A stretch of 61,674 nt of DNA from Candidatus Kaiserbacteria bacterium (lineage in GTDB: Bacteria; Patescibacteriota; Minisyncoccia; Phycocordibacterales; UBA2100), in NCBI GenBank assembly GCA_016217975.1, contig JACRFH010000028.1:1-61674 (forward strand), read 5' to 3'. Position numbers and translations under genes: made by a program. Within the stretch, counting starts at the first letter, position 1. Every line of letters starts with the position of its first letter. The notes under the pieces are model-generated. The model made no database searches and had not been told where the DNA came from. It was given only the letters and a program-made list of their open reading frames with translations. Below are positions 9,704 through 57,860 of this stretch, one piece after another.

Positions 9704-9735
9704 TCACACCTTCGTCTCGCTCTGGAAACGTCATT

Positions 9736-9758
9736 TGTCCGAGGTTCGACCTCGGACA
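9736..9758. repeat. REP-B palindrome copy 1 (TGTCCGAGG-TTCGA-CCTCGGACA)
   Basis: Perfect 9-bp arms with a 5-nt loop, 33 nt after the rpsA stop and 38 nt before the RAYT ATG. Confidence 0.9.
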
Positions 9759-9795
9759 CCGTGAGTGTCAGTTTGTGGTGTAGTATAATTTGGCA

Positions 9796-10443
9796 ATGAC
9801 GCGACAAATCGAGTTTGCGAGCGATGAGTTGTATCACATCTACAATCGCGGTACCGAGAAGCGCATTGTATTTCTTTCCCGCTGGGATTACGACCGCTTC
9901 CTGACGCTCCTTTATCTTTGCAATCAGGAGGAGCGAATAGACGAGCGTCTCAACAGGCATACTTTGGCGCAAGCATTGGAGTTGCCCCAAGGTTCACCGC
10001 TTGTGAATATCGTTGCCTATTGCCTGATGCCCAATCACTTCCATCTTGTGCTGCGCGAAATCAGCGGGAGCGGTATAAGTCGATACATGCAGAAGGTCAT
10101 CACGGGCTACACCATGTATTTCAATAAAAAGTATGATCGAAGTGGTGTCTTATTTCAGGGGAAATTCAAAGCGGCTCATGCAAAGGATGATCGTTACCTC
10201 CAATACCTCATGGCATATGTACATCTGAACCCGACTACACTGACTAACGTATTTGAGAAAGACAAACTCTCATCTACGGTACGATCATTAAAACAATATC
10301 GATATTCGAGCTATCTGGACTATATAGGCACAAAGCGTCCGGAAAACAAATTGGTAGACATGTACGCGCTACCTGGATATCTTTCAGGCCCAAAACATTT
10401 CAAGAAACATATCAAAGAGTGGCTCGATCTGAAACTGGATTAA
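9796..10443 (+). CDS. REP-associated tyrosine transposase (RAYT, IS200/IS605 TnpA-like HUH Y1 enzyme)
   Basis: HUH motif in CLMPNHFHLVL and catalytic Tyr motif in LMAYVHLNP, about 215 aa. A TATAAT box at 9784..9789 lies only 6 nt before the ATG. Confidence 0.8.
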   Translation: MTRQIEFASDELYHIYNRGTEKRIVFLSRWDYDRFLTLLYLCNQEERIDERLNRHTLAQALELPQGSPLVNIVAYCLMPNHFHLVLREISGSGISRYMQKVITGYTMYFNKKYDRSGVLFQGKFKAAHAKDDRYLQYLMAYVHLNPTTLTNVFEKDKLSSTVRSLKQYRYSSYLDYIGTKRPENKLVDMYALPGYLSGPKHFKKHIKEWLDLKLD

Positions 10444-10450
10444 CTCAAAA

Positions 10451-10473
10451 TGTCCGAGGTCGGACCTCGGACA
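10451..10473. repeat. REP-B palindrome copy 2 (TGTCCGAGG-TCGGA-CCTCGGACA)
   Basis: Same 9-bp arms as copy 1 with a variant loop, 8 nt after the RAYT stop. Confidence 0.9.
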
Positions 10474-10490
10474 CGCAGGTTCGTATCTCG

Positions 10491-10499
10491 TGGTATAAT
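10491..10499 (+). promoter_or_regulatory. Extended -10 element (TGgTATAAT)
   Basis: TGGTATAAT lies 50 nt upstream of the ATG at 10549. No convincing -35 was seen. Confidence 0.3.
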
Positions 10500-10548
10500 A
10501 TGATTGGCGATATTTTCAATACACATCGATATCTTGTATACTCTTTCA

Positions 10549-10914
10549 ATGGACAAAGAACCCGCTCCGCTAACAGAAAAGCAACGTCAGCGAATTGTTG
10601 GCGTCATTAGAAATCTTGTTTCTGGTGGAAGTGCGAGGTCAGAAACAAGCAAGGCAGTGCAACGCCATTTGCGAGAACTGAATTTTAAGTACCCAATAAT
10701 GGTCATCTTCTCAAGTAAGAAAAACAAAAGCGAGGATCGCGTACAAGCACGTGACGAAAATCATTTTCTTGATCTTCTTCGGTATGGTCCCGAAGCGGAC
10801 GGTCTCAAAGATTCTAGTACAGACATGGTCCCAGAAATGATCCTACACCGATTGTCATATCCAAGGCGACCTCATGAGTTCATTGTCAATGTAGAACTGG
10901 ACTCTAGCGATTGA
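10549..10914 (+). CDS. Hypothetical protein
   Basis: 121 aa from MDKEPAPL. No motif recognised. AT-richer than its neighbours. Confidence 0.4.
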   Translation: MDKEPAPLTEKQRQRIVGVIRNLVSGGSARSETSKAVQRHLRELNFKYPIMVIFSSKKNKSEDRVQARDENHFLDLLRYGPEADGLKDSSTDMVPEMILHRLSYPRRPHEFIVNVELDSSD

Positions 10915-23278: not shown

Positions 23279-23343
23279 GGTTTACGCAACATCTTCACGC
23301 CATTGTACCACCGGCGTGTACAAATTCTTCCGTCATGAAAAAA

Positions 23344-23366
23344 ATGGCAAGGTTCAACCTTGCCAT
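23344..23366. repeat. REP-A palindrome copy 1 (ATGGCAAGG-TTCAA-CCTTGCCAT), terminator-like
   Basis: Perfect 9-bp arms with an A-run before and a T-run after, 36 nt downstream of the minus-strand stop at 23402. Confidence 0.9.
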
Positions 23367-23401
23367 TTCGAGATCAGAGTTAGTACTCACAATGCTGCCG
23401 A

Positions 23402-23922: not shown

Positions 23923-23999
23923 AAAGTAAAAAACTAGTCTTGTATGAGTGAATAGTTGCACATCCGTTAATTTCGTCAACTTCTCATCCGAGGTTCTTC

Positions 24000-24024
24000 G
24001 TGTCCGAGGTTCGACCTCGGACAC
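24000..24024. repeat. REP-B palindrome copy 3 (GTGTCCGAGG-TTCGA-CCTCGGACAC)
   Basis: 10-bp arms. It is preceded by a partial half-site duplication (TCCGAGGTTC at 23987..23996). Confidence 0.9.
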
Positions 24025-29263: not shown

Positions 29264-29745
29264 CTGATCTGGCCCAAAGGGCTCACGGTGATCTCCGATG
29301 TCTTGCTCTCACCCGAAAGTGTGATCGTGATCGGGCCCGACGTCGTTGCAGAGAGCTGCGTAAATATGAAGTCGCCGTTAAATGAATGAGTGACATTTAC
29401 ATCCGTCTCGAACGAAGAATTCATCTCGTCCCCCGCATCGTATACAGCGCCCTGAAAGAGAATATATTTGTCGGGCTGAATATGGACACCGTGCGGTTTG
29501 CCATCTTCGCAATCGCTTCCATAACATAGATTATTGATCGCCTGCGCGCGAGCGCGCTGGAGAAGCGCAAGCAAGAGATCCCGATCCGAATGATATGTGG
29601 CACCTCGATATGATTCCATGCTCACAAGCAGCCCAAAACTGCTTATAATCACAAACATTCCCATCACGAGGAGCACTTCGATCAGAGTGAACCCATTCCC
29701 CATATATGGACATGGCATGTCCATAAATTGCTTGGAACGAGACAT
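29251..29745 (-). CDS. Prepilin-type minor pilin (GspH/FimT-like)
   Basis: YMGNG-FTLIEVLLVMGMFVII is a class III signal. Confidence 0.7.
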   Translation of the reverse strand: MSRSKQFMDMPCPYMGNGFTLIEVLLVMGMFVIISSFGLLVSMESYRGATYHSDRDLLLALLQRARAQAINNLCYGSDCEDGKPHGVHIQPDKYILFQGAVYDAGDEMNSSFETDVNVTHSFNGDFIFTQLSATTSGPITITLSGESKTSEITVSPLGQISWTN

Positions 29746-43659: not shown

Positions 43660-43881
43660 TCCAAACGAAGATACGGATTCGAAGTGGATCCAAAACCTAG
43701 GGAAACCAGCGAAAGCTGATCGGTCTTGGATCCGCTTCGGAGCCCTACCAAAGAAAGTCCGTACAAAAGGACCTTAATCGACCGGCATCCTATATGAAGA
43801 AGTGGGGGTGTCAATTTCTTTTCGTTGCGTAGTATGACGGAGGTACGGCACAAAAATGGCAAGGTTCAACCTTGCCATTTT
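43660..43881 (+). ncRNA. Candidate ~220-nt structured ncRNA of unknown class
   Basis: Bounded by the promoter above and by the REP-A2 hairpin plus T-run. Internal helices: GGATCCAA/TTGGATCC (43685..43692 / 43725..43732), CAGC-GAAA-GCTG (43706..43717), GTCC/GGAC, and a closing CCTCC/GGAGG (43657..43661 / 43838..43842). No convincing ORF. Confidence 0.35.
43855..43877. repeat. REP-A palindrome copy 2, bidirectional terminator
   Basis: AAAAATGGCAAGGTTCAACCTTGCCATTTTT, 29 nt downstream of the minus-strand stop at 43906. Confidence 0.9.
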
Positions 43882-43905
43882 TGTGCGGTTAGTTCGTAAT
43901 ATATT

Positions 43906-52063: not shown

Positions 52064-52103
52064 ATATATCTCTCCTTGCGCGGCCGCGCAAGGAGAGATA
52101 TAT
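52064..52103. repeat. Perfect 40-bp palindrome without loop (centre GCGGCCGC)
   Basis: ATATATCTCTCCTTGCGCGG|CCGCGCAAGGAGAGATATAT. It lies 8 nt from REP-A3. Confidence 0.95.
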
Positions 52104-52110
52104 GTTAAAA

Positions 52111-52133
52111 ATGGCAAGGTTCGACCTTGCCAT
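52111..52133. repeat. REP-A palindrome copy 3 (loop variant TTCGA), terminator-like
   Basis: AAAAATGGCAAGGTTCGACCTTGCCATTTT, 70 nt downstream of the minus-strand stop at 52204. Confidence 0.9.
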
Positions 52134-52203
52134 TTTCACGGCGTGCATTGCTGTTTTTAGGTATATCTCTAGCCTCCGCGGCCGCATCAGCTAGCGATAT
52201 ATA

Positions 52204-55146: not shown

Positions 55147-56820
55147 ATGATATTGCGAGATCGAATAGCCGCTCTTATCAAGGGCGACGTACTGGATGAT
55201 GCGTTTACGCGGGCGAAATACAGTCGTGACACGAGTATTTTTGAGCGCTCTCCCAAAGTCGTCGTGTTCCCCAAAAATGCGGATGATGTTTCCGCGCTCG
55301 TAAAATTCGTGAATGACGCGCGAGACCACGGAGAGAATCTCTCTGTCACCGCACGATCCGCCGGTACCGATATGACCGGCGGACCTCTCACCGATTCAAT
55401 CTCTGTCGTCTTCACGAAATATATGAATCACATAATTGATATTGGGCCTGATCCCGACGCAAAGGACGGGACAGGTTATGCTGTTGCCGAGCCTGGTGTG
55501 TATTACCGCGATCTCGAAAAAGAGTCGCTAGCTAAATACGGCACTATATATCCGGCGTATCCCGCGTCGCGTGATCTCTGCGCGATCGGCGGCATTGTGT
55601 CTAATAATTCTGCGGGTGAATTGAATCTCCGTTACGGTAAGACTGATAGACACGTACGCGAGCTCGACGTTGTTCTTTCAGATGGTTCGCATGCGCAGAT
55701 TCAACCGATTTCGTTAAACGAACTTGCCGCCAAAGAAAAAGAAGCAACATTTGAAGGACGCCTCTACAAACAGATTCATGCGCTCATTGATGAGAACCGC
55801 GAGGAGATTGAGAAAGCCCGACCCACCGTCACCAAAAATTCTGCAGGATACGGTTTGTGGAATGTGATTGACGAAAAAAAGGGCATATTCGATCTTAATC
55901 AGCTGATCGTCGGAAGCCAAGGCACGCTTGCCTTTGTCACCCGCGCCAAGCTCGAAATGGTGAAGACAAAACCACATCGTGCTATGCTCGTCGTTTTCCT
56001 TGCGGATCTCCACATACTGCCCGAGATAGTGACTCGCGTGCTCGCCTTCGATCCCGAATCATTTGAATCATATGACGACAAGACCTTTTCTCTCGCGGTA
56101 CGCCTCATGCCGCGAATGCTTTCGCACATGGGCCCATATGCGGCGCTCAAACTCGGACTCGCCTTCATCCCGGATATTTGGACTGTAATCCGGGGAGGTG
56201 TTCCGAAACTGATTCTACTTGCTGAATTCGCCGAAGATTCGGGAGATGAAGCGGTCGAGAAAGCGCGAATGGCGAGACACTCGCTCGAGGGTCTCGCGGT
56301 CTCGACTCGCATTGCAAAAAGCGAGGCACAGTCGGCCAAGTACTGGAAAGTGCGACGAGAGAGCTTCGCGCTCCTGCGCAAGAATTTCCATGGCCGGTAT
56401 GCGGCACCCTTTATCGACGACATTGTCGTACACGTCGAGGACTACCCTAAATTCCTGCCCGAGCTCGAAAATCTGGTCCGCGGACATCGGTTCATCTACA
56501 CAATCGCTGGGCACATCGGCGATGGCAATTTTCACATCATTCCGCTTGTAAAAATGAACGGCGAAGCGGATCGCAAAGAAATGCTCGAACTCATGCCCAA
56601 AGTCTATGCACTTGTAGGGAAATACAGGGGCTCGATTACCGGCGAGCACAACGACGGCATCATTCGCACCCCGTACTTGCCCACGATGTTTAGCCCTCGT
56701 ATGATCGAGCTTTTCGCGCAGATAAAACACATCTTCGACCCCCTAGGTGTCTTCAATCCGGGAAAAAAGACGGGCGGGACCTTTGCCGATATCGAACGCA
56801 GTATGATCAAGAAAATATGA
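55147..56820 (+). CDS. FAD-linked oxidase/dehydrogenase (GlcD / D-lactate dehydrogenase-like)
   Basis: FAD_binding_4-like N-terminus (VVFPKNADDVSALVKFVN...VTARSAGTDMTGG). C-terminal GEHNDGIIR and IFDPLGVFNPGK. Confidence 0.8.
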   Translation: MILRDRIAALIKGDVLDDAFTRAKYSRDTSIFERSPKVVVFPKNADDVSALVKFVNDARDHGENLSVTARSAGTDMTGGPLTDSISVVFTKYMNHIIDIGPDPDAKDGTGYAVAEPGVYYRDLEKESLAKYGTIYPAYPASRDLCAIGGIVSNNSAGELNLRYGKTDRHVRELDVVLSDGSHAQIQPISLNELAAKEKEATFEGRLYKQIHALIDENREEIEKARPTVTKNSAGYGLWNVIDEKKGIFDLNQLIVGSQGTLAFVTRAKLEMVKTKPHRAMLVVFLADLHILPEIVTRVLAFDPESFESYDDKTFSLAVRLMPRMLSHMGPYAALKLGLAFIPDIWTVIRGGVPKLILLAEFAEDSGDEAVEKARMARHSLEGLAVSTRIAKSEAQSAKYWKVRRESFALLRKNFHGRYAAPFIDDIVVHVEDYPKFLPELENLVRGHRFIYTIAGHIGDGNFHIIPLVKMNGEADRKEMLELMPKVYALVGKYRGSITGEHNDGIIRTPYLPTMFSPRMIELFAQIKHIFDPLGVFNPGKKTGGTFADIERSMIKKI

Positions 56821-57860
56821 CTCGATTCCTCCGCTATATTCCATATTCGATATTCCTCATCCCTTTCAGTGCTTCCGCGCACGAGGTGTACGTCCTCGAC
56901 TCAGCCGCCATCATGCGCGATATCGTAAATCCCTCGCCAAATCCCCTCGCGCTCATTTTGCAAGACCCGCAACAATTCCTCTTCTGGGCTCTCATAGGCG
57001 CAATACTCATCTCGACTGTTTTTACGATGTCAATTACGCACCGCGTGCAGGATACGTTTTCACCATTTCTCATGCGCCTCAAGCCCTGGGCAGCGCCAAT
57101 TGCCCGCGTTACGCTCGGCGCATGCCTCATCGCGAGTGCATATAATAATGCGCTCTTCGGGCCAGAGCTTCCGTTTTCTGATTTCGGCACCTTTGGAAGA
57201 ATGATCCAGATCACGCTCTATATAAGCGGCATCTTGAGTCTTGTTGGACTTTGGACGCGCGCCGCAGGCTCTCTCGCGCTCTTGATATTTGCCGCTGGAA
57301 TCGCGAAATACAACATCTACATGTTCACCTACGCCAATTACCTCGGCGAGATATTCTTTGCGATGATCCTTGGAAGCGGACGATTCTCTCTTGATCACTG
57401 GCTGAACCTCCCAAAGATGGCAAGGTTCAACCTTGCCATCTTTGCCAAACTCGGACGGCGATTGGAACCGTACGCATTTCCCGTTTTGCGTATCCTTTTC
57501 GGAATCTCAATCGCATTCGCTTCGTACTATGCCAAATTTGTACACAGTCAACTCGCGCTCGACGTCGTCACCAAGTATCACCTTACCAACTTCTTCCATT
57601 TCGACCCTCTCTTTATTGTCCTCGGCGCATTCTGCGTGGAACTTTTGATCGGACTATTCTTGATACTCGGCGTCGAGATTCGCCATACTGCCCTTTTCTT
57701 CCTATTCTGGCTCGCCCTTTCGCTCCTCTATTTCGGCGAGGCCGTCTGGCCGCACCTTGTGCTCGTGGGCGTCCTCCTCGCGCTCTTTTGCCACGGCTAC
57801 GACAAACTCTCCTTAGAAGGCTACTACTTCAAACGAGGGTCCCGTGAGCCTGTGTTATGA
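56817..57860 (+). CDS. Polytopic membrane protein, two DoxX-like halves joined by a linker that contains a REP-A palindrome
   Basis: 347 aa with helices on both sides of residue ~200. The linker LNLPKMARFNLAIFAKLG is encoded by the palindrome at 57413..57443. The DoxX assignment is tentative. Confidence 0.5.
   Translation: MTRFLRYIPYSIFLIPFSASAHEVYVLDSAAIMRDIVNPSPNPLALILQDPQQFLFWALIGAILISTVFTMSITHRVQDTFSPFLMRLKPWAAPIARVTLGACLIASAYNNALFGPELPFSDFGTFGRMIQITLYISGILSLVGLWTRAAGSLALLIFAAGIAKYNIYMFTYANYLGEIFFAMILGSGRFSLDHWLNLPKMARFNLAIFAKLGRRLEPYAFPVLRILFGISIAFASYYAKFVHSQLALDVVTKYHLTNFFHFDPLFIVLGAFCVELLIGLFLILGVEIRHTALFFLFWLALSLLYFGEAVWPHLVLVGVLLALFCHGYDKLSLEGYYFKRGSREPVL
57413..57443. repeat. REP-A palindrome copy 4 with 13-bp arms, in frame inside a CDS
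   Basis: AAAGATGGCAAGG-TTCAA-CCTTGCCATCTTT. It has no flanking A5/T5 runs, unlike copies 1-3. Confidence 0.9.

Follow-up and report, generated by a model that had tools for sequence, protein, structure and literature searches.

A small Y1 transposase gene bracketed by hairpins in a streamlined genome of the candidate phyla radiation (CPR) raises the question whether it forms part of a mobile insertion sequence (IS) or of a system coupling a REP-associated tyrosine transposase (RAYT) to repetitive extragenic palindromes (REP). The gene is located on contig JACRFH010000028.1 of Candidatus Kaiserbacteria bacterium (assembly GCA_016217975.1), analyzed here over its entire 61,674 nucleotides (the window; contig C16 of the genome labelled G000). 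The source assembly comprises 943,729 bp in 65 contigs with 51 % G+C and is 90.6 % complete; all copy counts given below refer to this 0.94-Mb assembly. A RAYT gene with cognate palindromes on either side had been proposed in an initial annotation. The locus of this Kaiserbacteria-like CPR genome most probably represents such a REP/RAYT-type module, or 'REPtron', with enzyme activity and mobility as predicted properties. The proposed architecture is supported by the motif class of the protein, by the match of its modelled fold to 4ER8 and by palindromes that both flank the gene and are dispersed in the genome. The module is a variant, characterized by (i) a subclass-2.1-like protein without helix-turn-helix (HTH) tail, (ii) perfect AGG-N5-CCT palindromes without GTAG foot, (iii) tiny repeat families, and (iv) several orthogonal gene-palindrome sets.

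The two flanking palindromes and a third, solitary copy (Table 1) conform to the pattern TGTCCGAGG-N5-CCTCGGACA, which is matched 3 times in the window compared to 0 matches expected from 100 dinucleotide-preserving shuffles. As single-stranded DNA, the three copies fold with -11.2 to -14.3 kcal/mol (z-scores -4.3 to -5.3). The upstream palindrome begins 32 nt past the stop codon of the gene for ribosomal protein S1 and lies 37 nt ahead of the ATG, its end being 25 nt before the -10 hexamer, and the loop of the downstream palindrome differs by one substitution from the reverse complement of the upstream loop. Both flanking copies were thus present as annotated, apart from a downstream gap of 7 instead of 8 nt. 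The annotated third copy and its neighbouring duplicated half-site were likewise confirmed; the half-site may be the relic of a second palindrome copy. Elsewhere in the genome the palindrome recurs at two further sites, C42:29955 (1 mismatch; upstream of a gene) and C46:15760 (loop TCGAA; in frame in a 983-aa ileS-like open reading frame (ORF), read as LSEVEPRT), and in degenerate form at C13:5729, amounting to 5 copies and 1 degenerate one for a single gene. Since both flanking copies are situated just downstream of a stop codon, they could be taken for ordinary terminators of the S1 and Y1 genes, with all other copies due to chance. This explanation is effectively refuted by the shuffles, by the occurrence of the same 23-mer at five loci, by gene-specific pairing in more than 80 independent loci and by restriction of the palindrome to genomes with an orthologue of the gene.

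The latter two points emerge from comparison with relatives, whose homologues are found under the names Patescibacteria, Kaiserbacteria or Parcubacteria. Among 40 relatives, the closest homologue (71 % identity) is encoded in the sister genome G020 ('Parcubacteria group bacterium Gr01-1014_8'), likewise between S1 and pth, and carries the same palindrome on both sides, the two loops (TTCGA and TCGAA) being exact reverse complements of each other. Across all 41 genomes (G000 and the 40 relatives), TCCGAGG...CCTCGGA with a TTCGA-like loop (TTCGA, TCGAA, TCGGA, TTTAA) is confined to two genomes, with 5 copies in G000 and 3 in G020. In a set of 78 homologous loci taken from relatives (set 1; perfect hairpins with a stem of at least 8 bp counted in the flanks), flanking hairpins were detected in 70 loci and matched upstream/downstream pairs in 43, the stem varying from gene to gene. 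The upstream hairpin mostly ends 10–25 nt before the start and the downstream hairpin follows the stop codon at a distance of at most ~20 nt. An independent set of 78 loci from named Patescibacteria genomes (set 2; including Kaiser-, Nomura-, Vogel-, Taylor-, Yonath-, Adler- and Lloydbacteria as well as Paceibacteria) yielded flanking hairpins in 64 and matched pairs in 38 loci, compared to 6/78 in the intragenic control, with the inner hairpin core being nearly always AGG-N5-CCT. Protein identity and hairpin-arm identity diverge together (Mantel r = 0.31, reached by 0 of 2000 permutations), which is to be read as an indication only, as kin are not independent. An inverted-orientation rule for the flanking copies, suggested by four sets of G000, was dropped, since the 43 pairs comprise 22 inverted, 19 direct and 2 other arrangements. 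Two loci from genomes classed as different species (L021 in G021:C30 and L022 in G006:C22) share 3,591 bp at 100 % identity, RAYT module and flanks included, which may reflect contigs shared between bins or very recent exchange.

The annotated coding sequence with its HUH (NHFHLVL) and Tyr (YVHLNP) motifs was verified. The 215-aa product contains the HuH motif N80-H81-F82-H83, FQG at residues 120–122 (LFQG context), the Y motif Y141-V-H-L-N-P146 and, within a 69-aa C-terminal tail, the 'SS' motif YRYSSY (residues 168–173); ~21 aa are inserted ahead of HuH. In an alignment of 46 homologues, N80, H81, H83, Q121, G122, Y141, H143, L144, N145, P146 and S171 are invariant. The Pfam model Y1_Tnp matches with 31.8 bits (cut-off 23), and REP_Tyr_transpos (NF047646) is the sole NCBIfam match. 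The AlphaFold2 (AF2) model (pLDDT 78, pTM 0.81) has as top PDB match in Foldseek 4ER8 (E 3.5e-4, probability 1.0), the complex of E. coli TnpA-REP with a REP hairpin, followed by the TnpA proteins of IS608, ISDra2 and IS200 (probabilities 0.9–0.99). This fold search was needed because a PDB sequence search with the single protein gave no match and a 46-sequence profile merely marginal ones (ISDra2 TnpA and 4ER8).

Class assignment was based on published motif tables, hidden Markov model scores, BLAST against three references, and fold. Y---NP marks class 2 TnpA-Y1 proteins (RAYT side), as opposed to Y---Q in IS200 (Quentin 2018, PMC6006769, Table 1). Within class 2, subclass 2.1 (Group 1 of Bertels, 'TIRYT') is defined by NH[YF]H / FQ / Y[IV]HLNP / SS tail (PMC6006769), and E. 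coli RayT belongs to subclass 2.2 (Quentin et al. 2018, PMC6006769) or Group 2 (Bertels et al. 2017). By its motifs, the window protein is assigned to class 2 TnpA-Y1, on the RAYT side and not with IS200, and is placed nearest to subclass 2.1/Group 1, without the HTH tail of that group. The closest non-CPR sequences are the subclass 2.1 proteins WP_011387744.1 (Rhodospirillum rubrum) and WP_131739603.1 (Legionella adelaidensis); BLASTP hits to the R. rubrum and Legionella plasmid 'transposases' carrying 2.1 motifs reach E 1e-18 to 1e-19 at ~28–31 % identity. No Pfam match to an HTH domain was obtained for the window protein, while the Legionella 2.1-type control protein matches Bac_DnaA_C, HTH_23 and HTH_28.

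The genome harbours six paralogues of 35–50 % identity (tblastn and Pfam model), referred to here by their contigs C16 (the window gene), C28, C19, C4, C59 and C39. All six retain HuH, Y-HLNP and SS, with FQG replaced by FES in C4 and by WQG in C39, and have NF047646 as their sole NCBIfam match (33–49 bits; E. coli RayT as control 179). For C16, C28, C59 and C39, a perfect palindrome that differs between the four paralogues stands on either side of the gene and is dispersed in 5–12 copies (Table 1). In case of C19, one copy is found at the stop codon and the upstream side is lost at the contig end; upstream of C4 there is just an inverted repeat in degenerate form. The C28-type family has four of its 12 copies inside the window, on a contig other than that of its gene.

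Such hairpin-gene-hairpin units could also represent still-mobile minimal elements of the IS200/IS605 type, with solitary palindromes as one-ended or decayed remnants. IS200 elements, ~0.7 kb in size with one gene and subterminal hairpins, have the same gross anatomy, and distribution of the gene among relatives is patchy (0–10 genes per genome). Moreover, the gap between S1 and pth (window 9704–10903) is occupied by a RAYT module only in G000, G020 and G016, in the latter by a gene of 43 % identity whose palindrome differs; other ORFs are present there in some relatives. However, the maximal identity between gene copies within any of 17 genomes is 65 %, while IS200 copies average 99 % (Quentin 2018, PMC6006769, Table 1). 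The IS200 model NF033573 has 0 matches in the whole genome at E of at most 1, compared to matches in 8/14 control genomes, and the protein carries Y---NP. Furthermore, solitary palindromes outnumber genes and some are in frame inside essential genes, and roughly half of the flanking pairs stand in inverted orientation (22 vs 19), whereas IS608-type ends are direct. A mobile IS of this kind is therefore considered improbable. The protein is distinct from ordinary IS200 TnpA, given in addition REP_Tyr_transpos as sole NCBIfam match and paralogues of at most 50 % identity, and the palindrome recurs outside the window, so that the two refuting conditions named in the initial annotation were both decided in its favour. 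The annotated 'no IS ends or tnpB' held in part: among the window ORFs inspected at the locus, no tnpB-sized one adjoins the transposase gene, but the lack of IS ends is no discriminator, IS200 ends being hairpins themselves.

Palindromes of the RAYT-associated families also reside in frame within long conserved ORFs, where they are read as 8–9 residues (e.g., LSEVEPRT, KCRTSDVLH, NVGHPMSY, MARFNLAI), one and the same palindrome being read in different frames in different genes. Hosts of the sister-family palindromes are leuS, argS, pheT, murD, carB-like and RNase-J-like genes, these names, like that of ileS, being read from flanking residues alone. Intragenic REPs, including those in tRNA synthetase genes, are known from other bacteria (Di Nocera 2013, PMC3733652). 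In the LeuRS of G009 (L100), KVSTTRTSDVLV is found at the position of the palindrome-encoded KCRTSDVLH of G000; judged from the protein sequence, it may be an old palindrome copy at the same site. As a separate observation, in about 12 RAYT-like genes the gene's own palindrome recurs in frame at nt +131 to +182 (approximately residues 45–60, ahead of HuH; loci in Table 1), and this recurrent spot coincides with the region of the ~21 extra residues of the window protein relative to proteobacterial subclass 2.1.

These in-frame copies also bear on the possibility that the palindromes are host terminators or operators, and that the Y1 protein was co-opted as hairpin-binding regulator or nuclease without mobilizing repeats. 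An upstream hairpin at a fixed place just before the -10 box in most homologues would agree with such a role, as would the C28-type copies, which follow stop codons and are flanked by A-/T-runs in the manner of bidirectional terminators, and the terminator-like hairpin often present in the S1-pth spacer of module-less relatives. However, the window-type palindrome has no T-run, and the in-frame copies in ileS, leuS, argS, pheT, murD and others fit neither terminators nor operators. For identical 23-nt sequences to become dispersed, a copying mechanism is required, and the catalytic residues are all invariant, which argues for retained cleavage chemistry. A purely regulatory role is thus regarded as very unlikely.

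For the REP/RAYT-type module, binding to the hairpin, the chemistry of cleavage, mobility of the palindromes and autoregulation are predicted by analogy with E. coli TnpA-REP and IS608. The protein would act as an endonuclease/strand-transferase of the HUH type on single-stranded DNA, with His81 and His83 holding the metal and Tyr141 serving as nucleophile, and would recognize the hairpin formed by its own 23-nt palindrome. The AGG-loop-CCT apex is common to the whole protein clade, the outer 6–7 bp being private to the window gene and its orthologue. Cleaving and rejoining beside the hairpin could occasionally copy or move the palindrome, giving rise to the 5–6 dispersed copies including the one in frame in ileS, and the two gene-bracketing palindromes would then be the 'home' copies. 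Binding of the protein at the upstream copy, which lies shortly before the -10 box, could exert feedback on expression, and the five sister paralogues would run parallel systems with their own palindromes.

Several findings weigh against this reading. The profile searches proposed initially were positive for Y1_Tnp, but the RAYT profile NF047646 scored 40.1 bits and hence remained under its 80-bit cut-off. The nearest lineage is subclass 2.1 rather than one of the classical REP-associated groups, and Quentin 2018 (PMC6006769) reports that REP-like sequences were found neither for this subclass nor for subclass 2.3. A copy number of 5–6 compared to hundreds in Proteobacteria makes 'REP family' a stretch; tens to hundreds of repeats are reported for RAYT Groups 2 and 3, and 12–14 for Groups 1 and 4, so that the window type is near the range of the latter and far under that of the former. 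A canonical 5' GT[AG]G foot is missing in the window type, which starts with TGTCC and has no conserved flank outside the palindrome; GTAG was found in the C39-type sister family alone, inside the stem. The suggested census did reveal extra genomic copies, but no REPIN doublet of the window type in the genome, just the half-site at 23987; the C39 type does form doublets (C39:20369 and C39:20439), as do palindromes of relatives. For solitary palindromes, no empty/filled site, insertion boundary or target site was definable: when the ileS and leuS segments were aligned with 13 relatives each, the palindrome-encoded residues fell into hypervariable loops without gain in length. Finally, the S1-pth gap is empty in most relatives. 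Since, in addition, G016 holds a different module there, long-term vertical inheritance of a 'domesticated' gene is not established, and the patchy occupancy, together with the orphan ORF carried by the 1.2-kb insert of the window, suggests that the whole module has had some mobility.

The annotated TATAAT at 6 nt before the ATG was confirmed, and the orthologue in G020 keeps TATAAT-N6-start with a GTG start codon. A -10-like hexamer starts at -12/-13 in 33/78 (set 1) and 47/78 (set 2) homologues, every other position being represented by at most 4. Leaderless expression of the transposase gene is therefore likely, as judged from sequence comparison. This layout is not special to the transposase gene, because the same geometry is found genome-wide: at 113 sites, TAnnnT-N6-ATG marks the start of an ORF of 100 aa or more, compared to ~10 at other spacings. 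Leaderless mRNAs thus appear to be common in the host organism. The hairpin was also considered as a -35 element (CGGACA resembling TTGACA) and rejected, as its spacing to the -10 box is 25 nt in the window and 6 nt in G020, i.e., not fixed.

The window gene is neighboured by the gene for ribosomal protein S1, an orphan ORF for 121 aa, and pth. Most of 30 relatives have S1 and pth directly adjacent in convergent orientation, and the spacing of the two genes across genus and order is often just 50–150 nt with a terminator-like hairpin in between (loci L112–L140). For the orphan ORF, neither a Pfam match nor a homologue in its own genome or in the G020 and G016 loci was found, and its membership in the RAYT module is uncertain. 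The stretch 9704..10903 contains no recognizable remnant of a duplicated S1 or pth gene end.

An unbiased census of perfect hairpins revealed 17 multi-copy families, some of them without resident gene in the assembly. The five-copy perfect palindrome TATGGACATGSCATGTCCATA (window 29705–29725; C22:6614, C54:38382, C59:14471, C63:4523) has no RAYT-like gene assigned, and GATTGAGGTTAAACCTCAATC (3 copies) borders a RAYT homologue in the relative G001 and is gene-less here. Both families may be orphans, or their genes may be unassembled. A 40-nt perfect palindrome with an 18-bp stem, ATATATCTCTCCTTGCGCGGCCGCGCAAGGAGAGATATAT, adjoins a C28-type copy at 52064–52103 and has a second copy at C21:6136. 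Two further hairpin repeats are located mostly at fixed distances from contig ends and probably belong to longer, assembly-breaking repeats: AAGACGCGCC-CCTC-GGCGCGTCTT is found ~70 nt from the ends of C28, C29, C43 and C58, at C7:167, and internally at C27:2073, and ATACAAGCGGCTCCC-N4-GGGAGCCGCTTGTAT near the ends of C15, C19, C20, C46, C61 and C64.

Table 1 Features of the RAYT-like module and of the palindrome families in genome G000 (positions without contig prefix refer to the window)
Feature	Position	Strand	Remarks
Upstream cognate palindrome TGTCCGAGG-TTCGA-CCTCGGACA	9736..9758		10-bp stem, 3-nt loop; DNA fold -11.3 kcal/mol, z -4.3
TATAAT -10 hexamer	9784..9789	+	6-nt spacer, then ATG at 9796; predicted leaderless promoter
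RAYT-like Y1 HUH gene, 215 aa	9796..10443	+	Pfam Y1_Tnp, motifs, AF2 fold
Downstream palindrome TGTCCGAGG-TCGGA-CCTCGGACA	10451..10473		7 nt past stop codon
Orphan ORF, 121 aa	10549..10914	+	In 1.2-kb S1-pth insert beside RAYT module; own TATACT-N6-ATG
Half-site TCCGAGGTTC	23987..23996	+	Duplicates 24003..24012; read from sequence
Solitary palindrome GTGTCCGAGGTTCGACCTCGGACAC	24000..24024		11-bp stem; intergenic, 13.5 kb from gene
C28-type copy AAATGGCAAGG-TTCAA-CCTTGCCATTT	23342..23368		Census position 23344; its RAYT paralogue on C28
C28-type copy	43848..43886		Census position 43856; stem extended to 18 bp
C28-type copy	52108..52136		Census position 52111; loop TTCGA
C28-type copy	57412..57444		Census position 57417; in frame in membrane-protein ORF 56817..57860, read KMARFNLAI
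C16 (window) palindrome TGTCCGAGG-N5-CCTCGGACA			5 copies (+1 degenerate) in genome
C28 palindrome AAATGGCAAGG-TTSAA-CCTTGCCATTT			12 copies in genome
C59 palindrome ATGATGGATTT-CSG-AAATCCATCAT			5 copies in genome
C39 palindrome ATGTAGGACA-N5-TGTCCTACAT			10 copies in genome
In-frame palindrome	C46:15760		ileS-like
In-frame palindrome	C11:6548		leuS-like
In-frame palindrome	C46:11559		argS-like
In-frame palindrome	C40:35060		pheT-like
In-frame palindrome	C53:5547		murD-like
In-frame palindrome	C57:24332		carB-like
In-frame palindrome	C56:33162		
Self-palindrome inside RAYT-like gene	C59:56987		In G000
Self-palindrome inside RAYT-like gene			Loci L013, L035, L048, L057, L059, L063, L064, L065, L070, L074, L077

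REP/RAYT systems have so far been characterized almost wholly in Proteobacteria, and full-text literature searches retrieved no description of such systems in CPR/Patescibacteria. Here, a lineage described as REP-less (subclass 2.1/Group 1) is clearly associated with private hairpin families, several sets existing in parallel within genomes that otherwise rank among the most streamlined known. A protein database search returned more than 4,800 matches, and sampled genomes of less than 1 Mb hold up to 10 copies. One may speculate that Patescibacteria hold a large radiation of RAYT-like enzymes, constituting mutually orthogonal, still-active systems that mobilize hairpins of single-stranded DNA, share the AGG-N5-CCT apex, differ in a private outer stem and write 8–9-codon segments into surface loops of essential genes (ileS, leuS, argS, pheT, murD). 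This wider proposal is possible, if doubtful; were it true, the radiation would be a significant source of protein-sequence novelty in reduced genomes and a natural library of hundreds of protein-hairpin specificity pairs. Gene-hairpin pairs with a common core and differing outer stem could be used to learn how Y1 proteins choose their hairpins, and the in-frame copies in essential genes bear on the origin of unusual CPR protein insertions. For annotation it is relevant that such genes are presently labelled 'transposase' or 'hypothetical' and that their palindromes are likely to break assemblies.

Compared to known systems, the window protein resembles E. coli RayT/TnpA-REP (YafM, b0228; 4ER8) in its HUH/Y1 fold, for which the latter is the best structural match, and in the class-2 motif Y---NP. 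The locus further resembles the E. coli REPtron in that the gene is bracketed by hairpin repeats also dispersed in the genome, and in having few, diverged gene copies with an own repeat family per paralogue. Differences are the marginal sequence similarity (BLASTP E 0.05; NF047646 40 vs 179 bits) and the additional 'SS' tail and insertion before HuH. Moreover, the palindromes lack the GT[AG]G foot of E. coli REPs, are perfect without bulge and count 5–6 copies instead of hundreds. With the TnpA proteins of IS200, IS608 and ISDra2 (subclass 1.1), the HUH/Y1 fold and the organization as lone small gene between hairpins are shared, and recognition of hairpins in single-stranded DNA is the accepted mechanism of the IS200/IS605 family. 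The locus differs from IS200 by Y---NP instead of Y---Q, lack of an NF033573 match, lack of identical multi-copy elements, lack of an adjoining tnpB and an excess of solitary hairpins over genes.

The NH[YF]H / FQ / Y[IV]HLNP / SS set of subclass 2.1/TIRYT is matched exactly at similar protein length, and among TIRYT inverted repeats, too, some are self-complementary and constitute small families of repeats (Di Nocera 2013, PMC3733652). However, GGGGWSAS of the terminal inverted repeats of this subclass is unseen in the window flanks, which instead consist of perfect 23-nt hairpins with an AGG-N5-CCT core, and the distal HTH tail of the Legionella protein has no counterpart in the window protein. 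Finally, the in-frame copies resemble intragenic REPs and Rickettsia palindromic elements (RPEs), i.e., short palindromes in frame in conserved genes, tRNA synthetases included (PMC3733652). In contrast to those, the elements described here span 8–9 codons in variable loops without visible gain in length, and their families are each tied to a resident RAYT-like gene.

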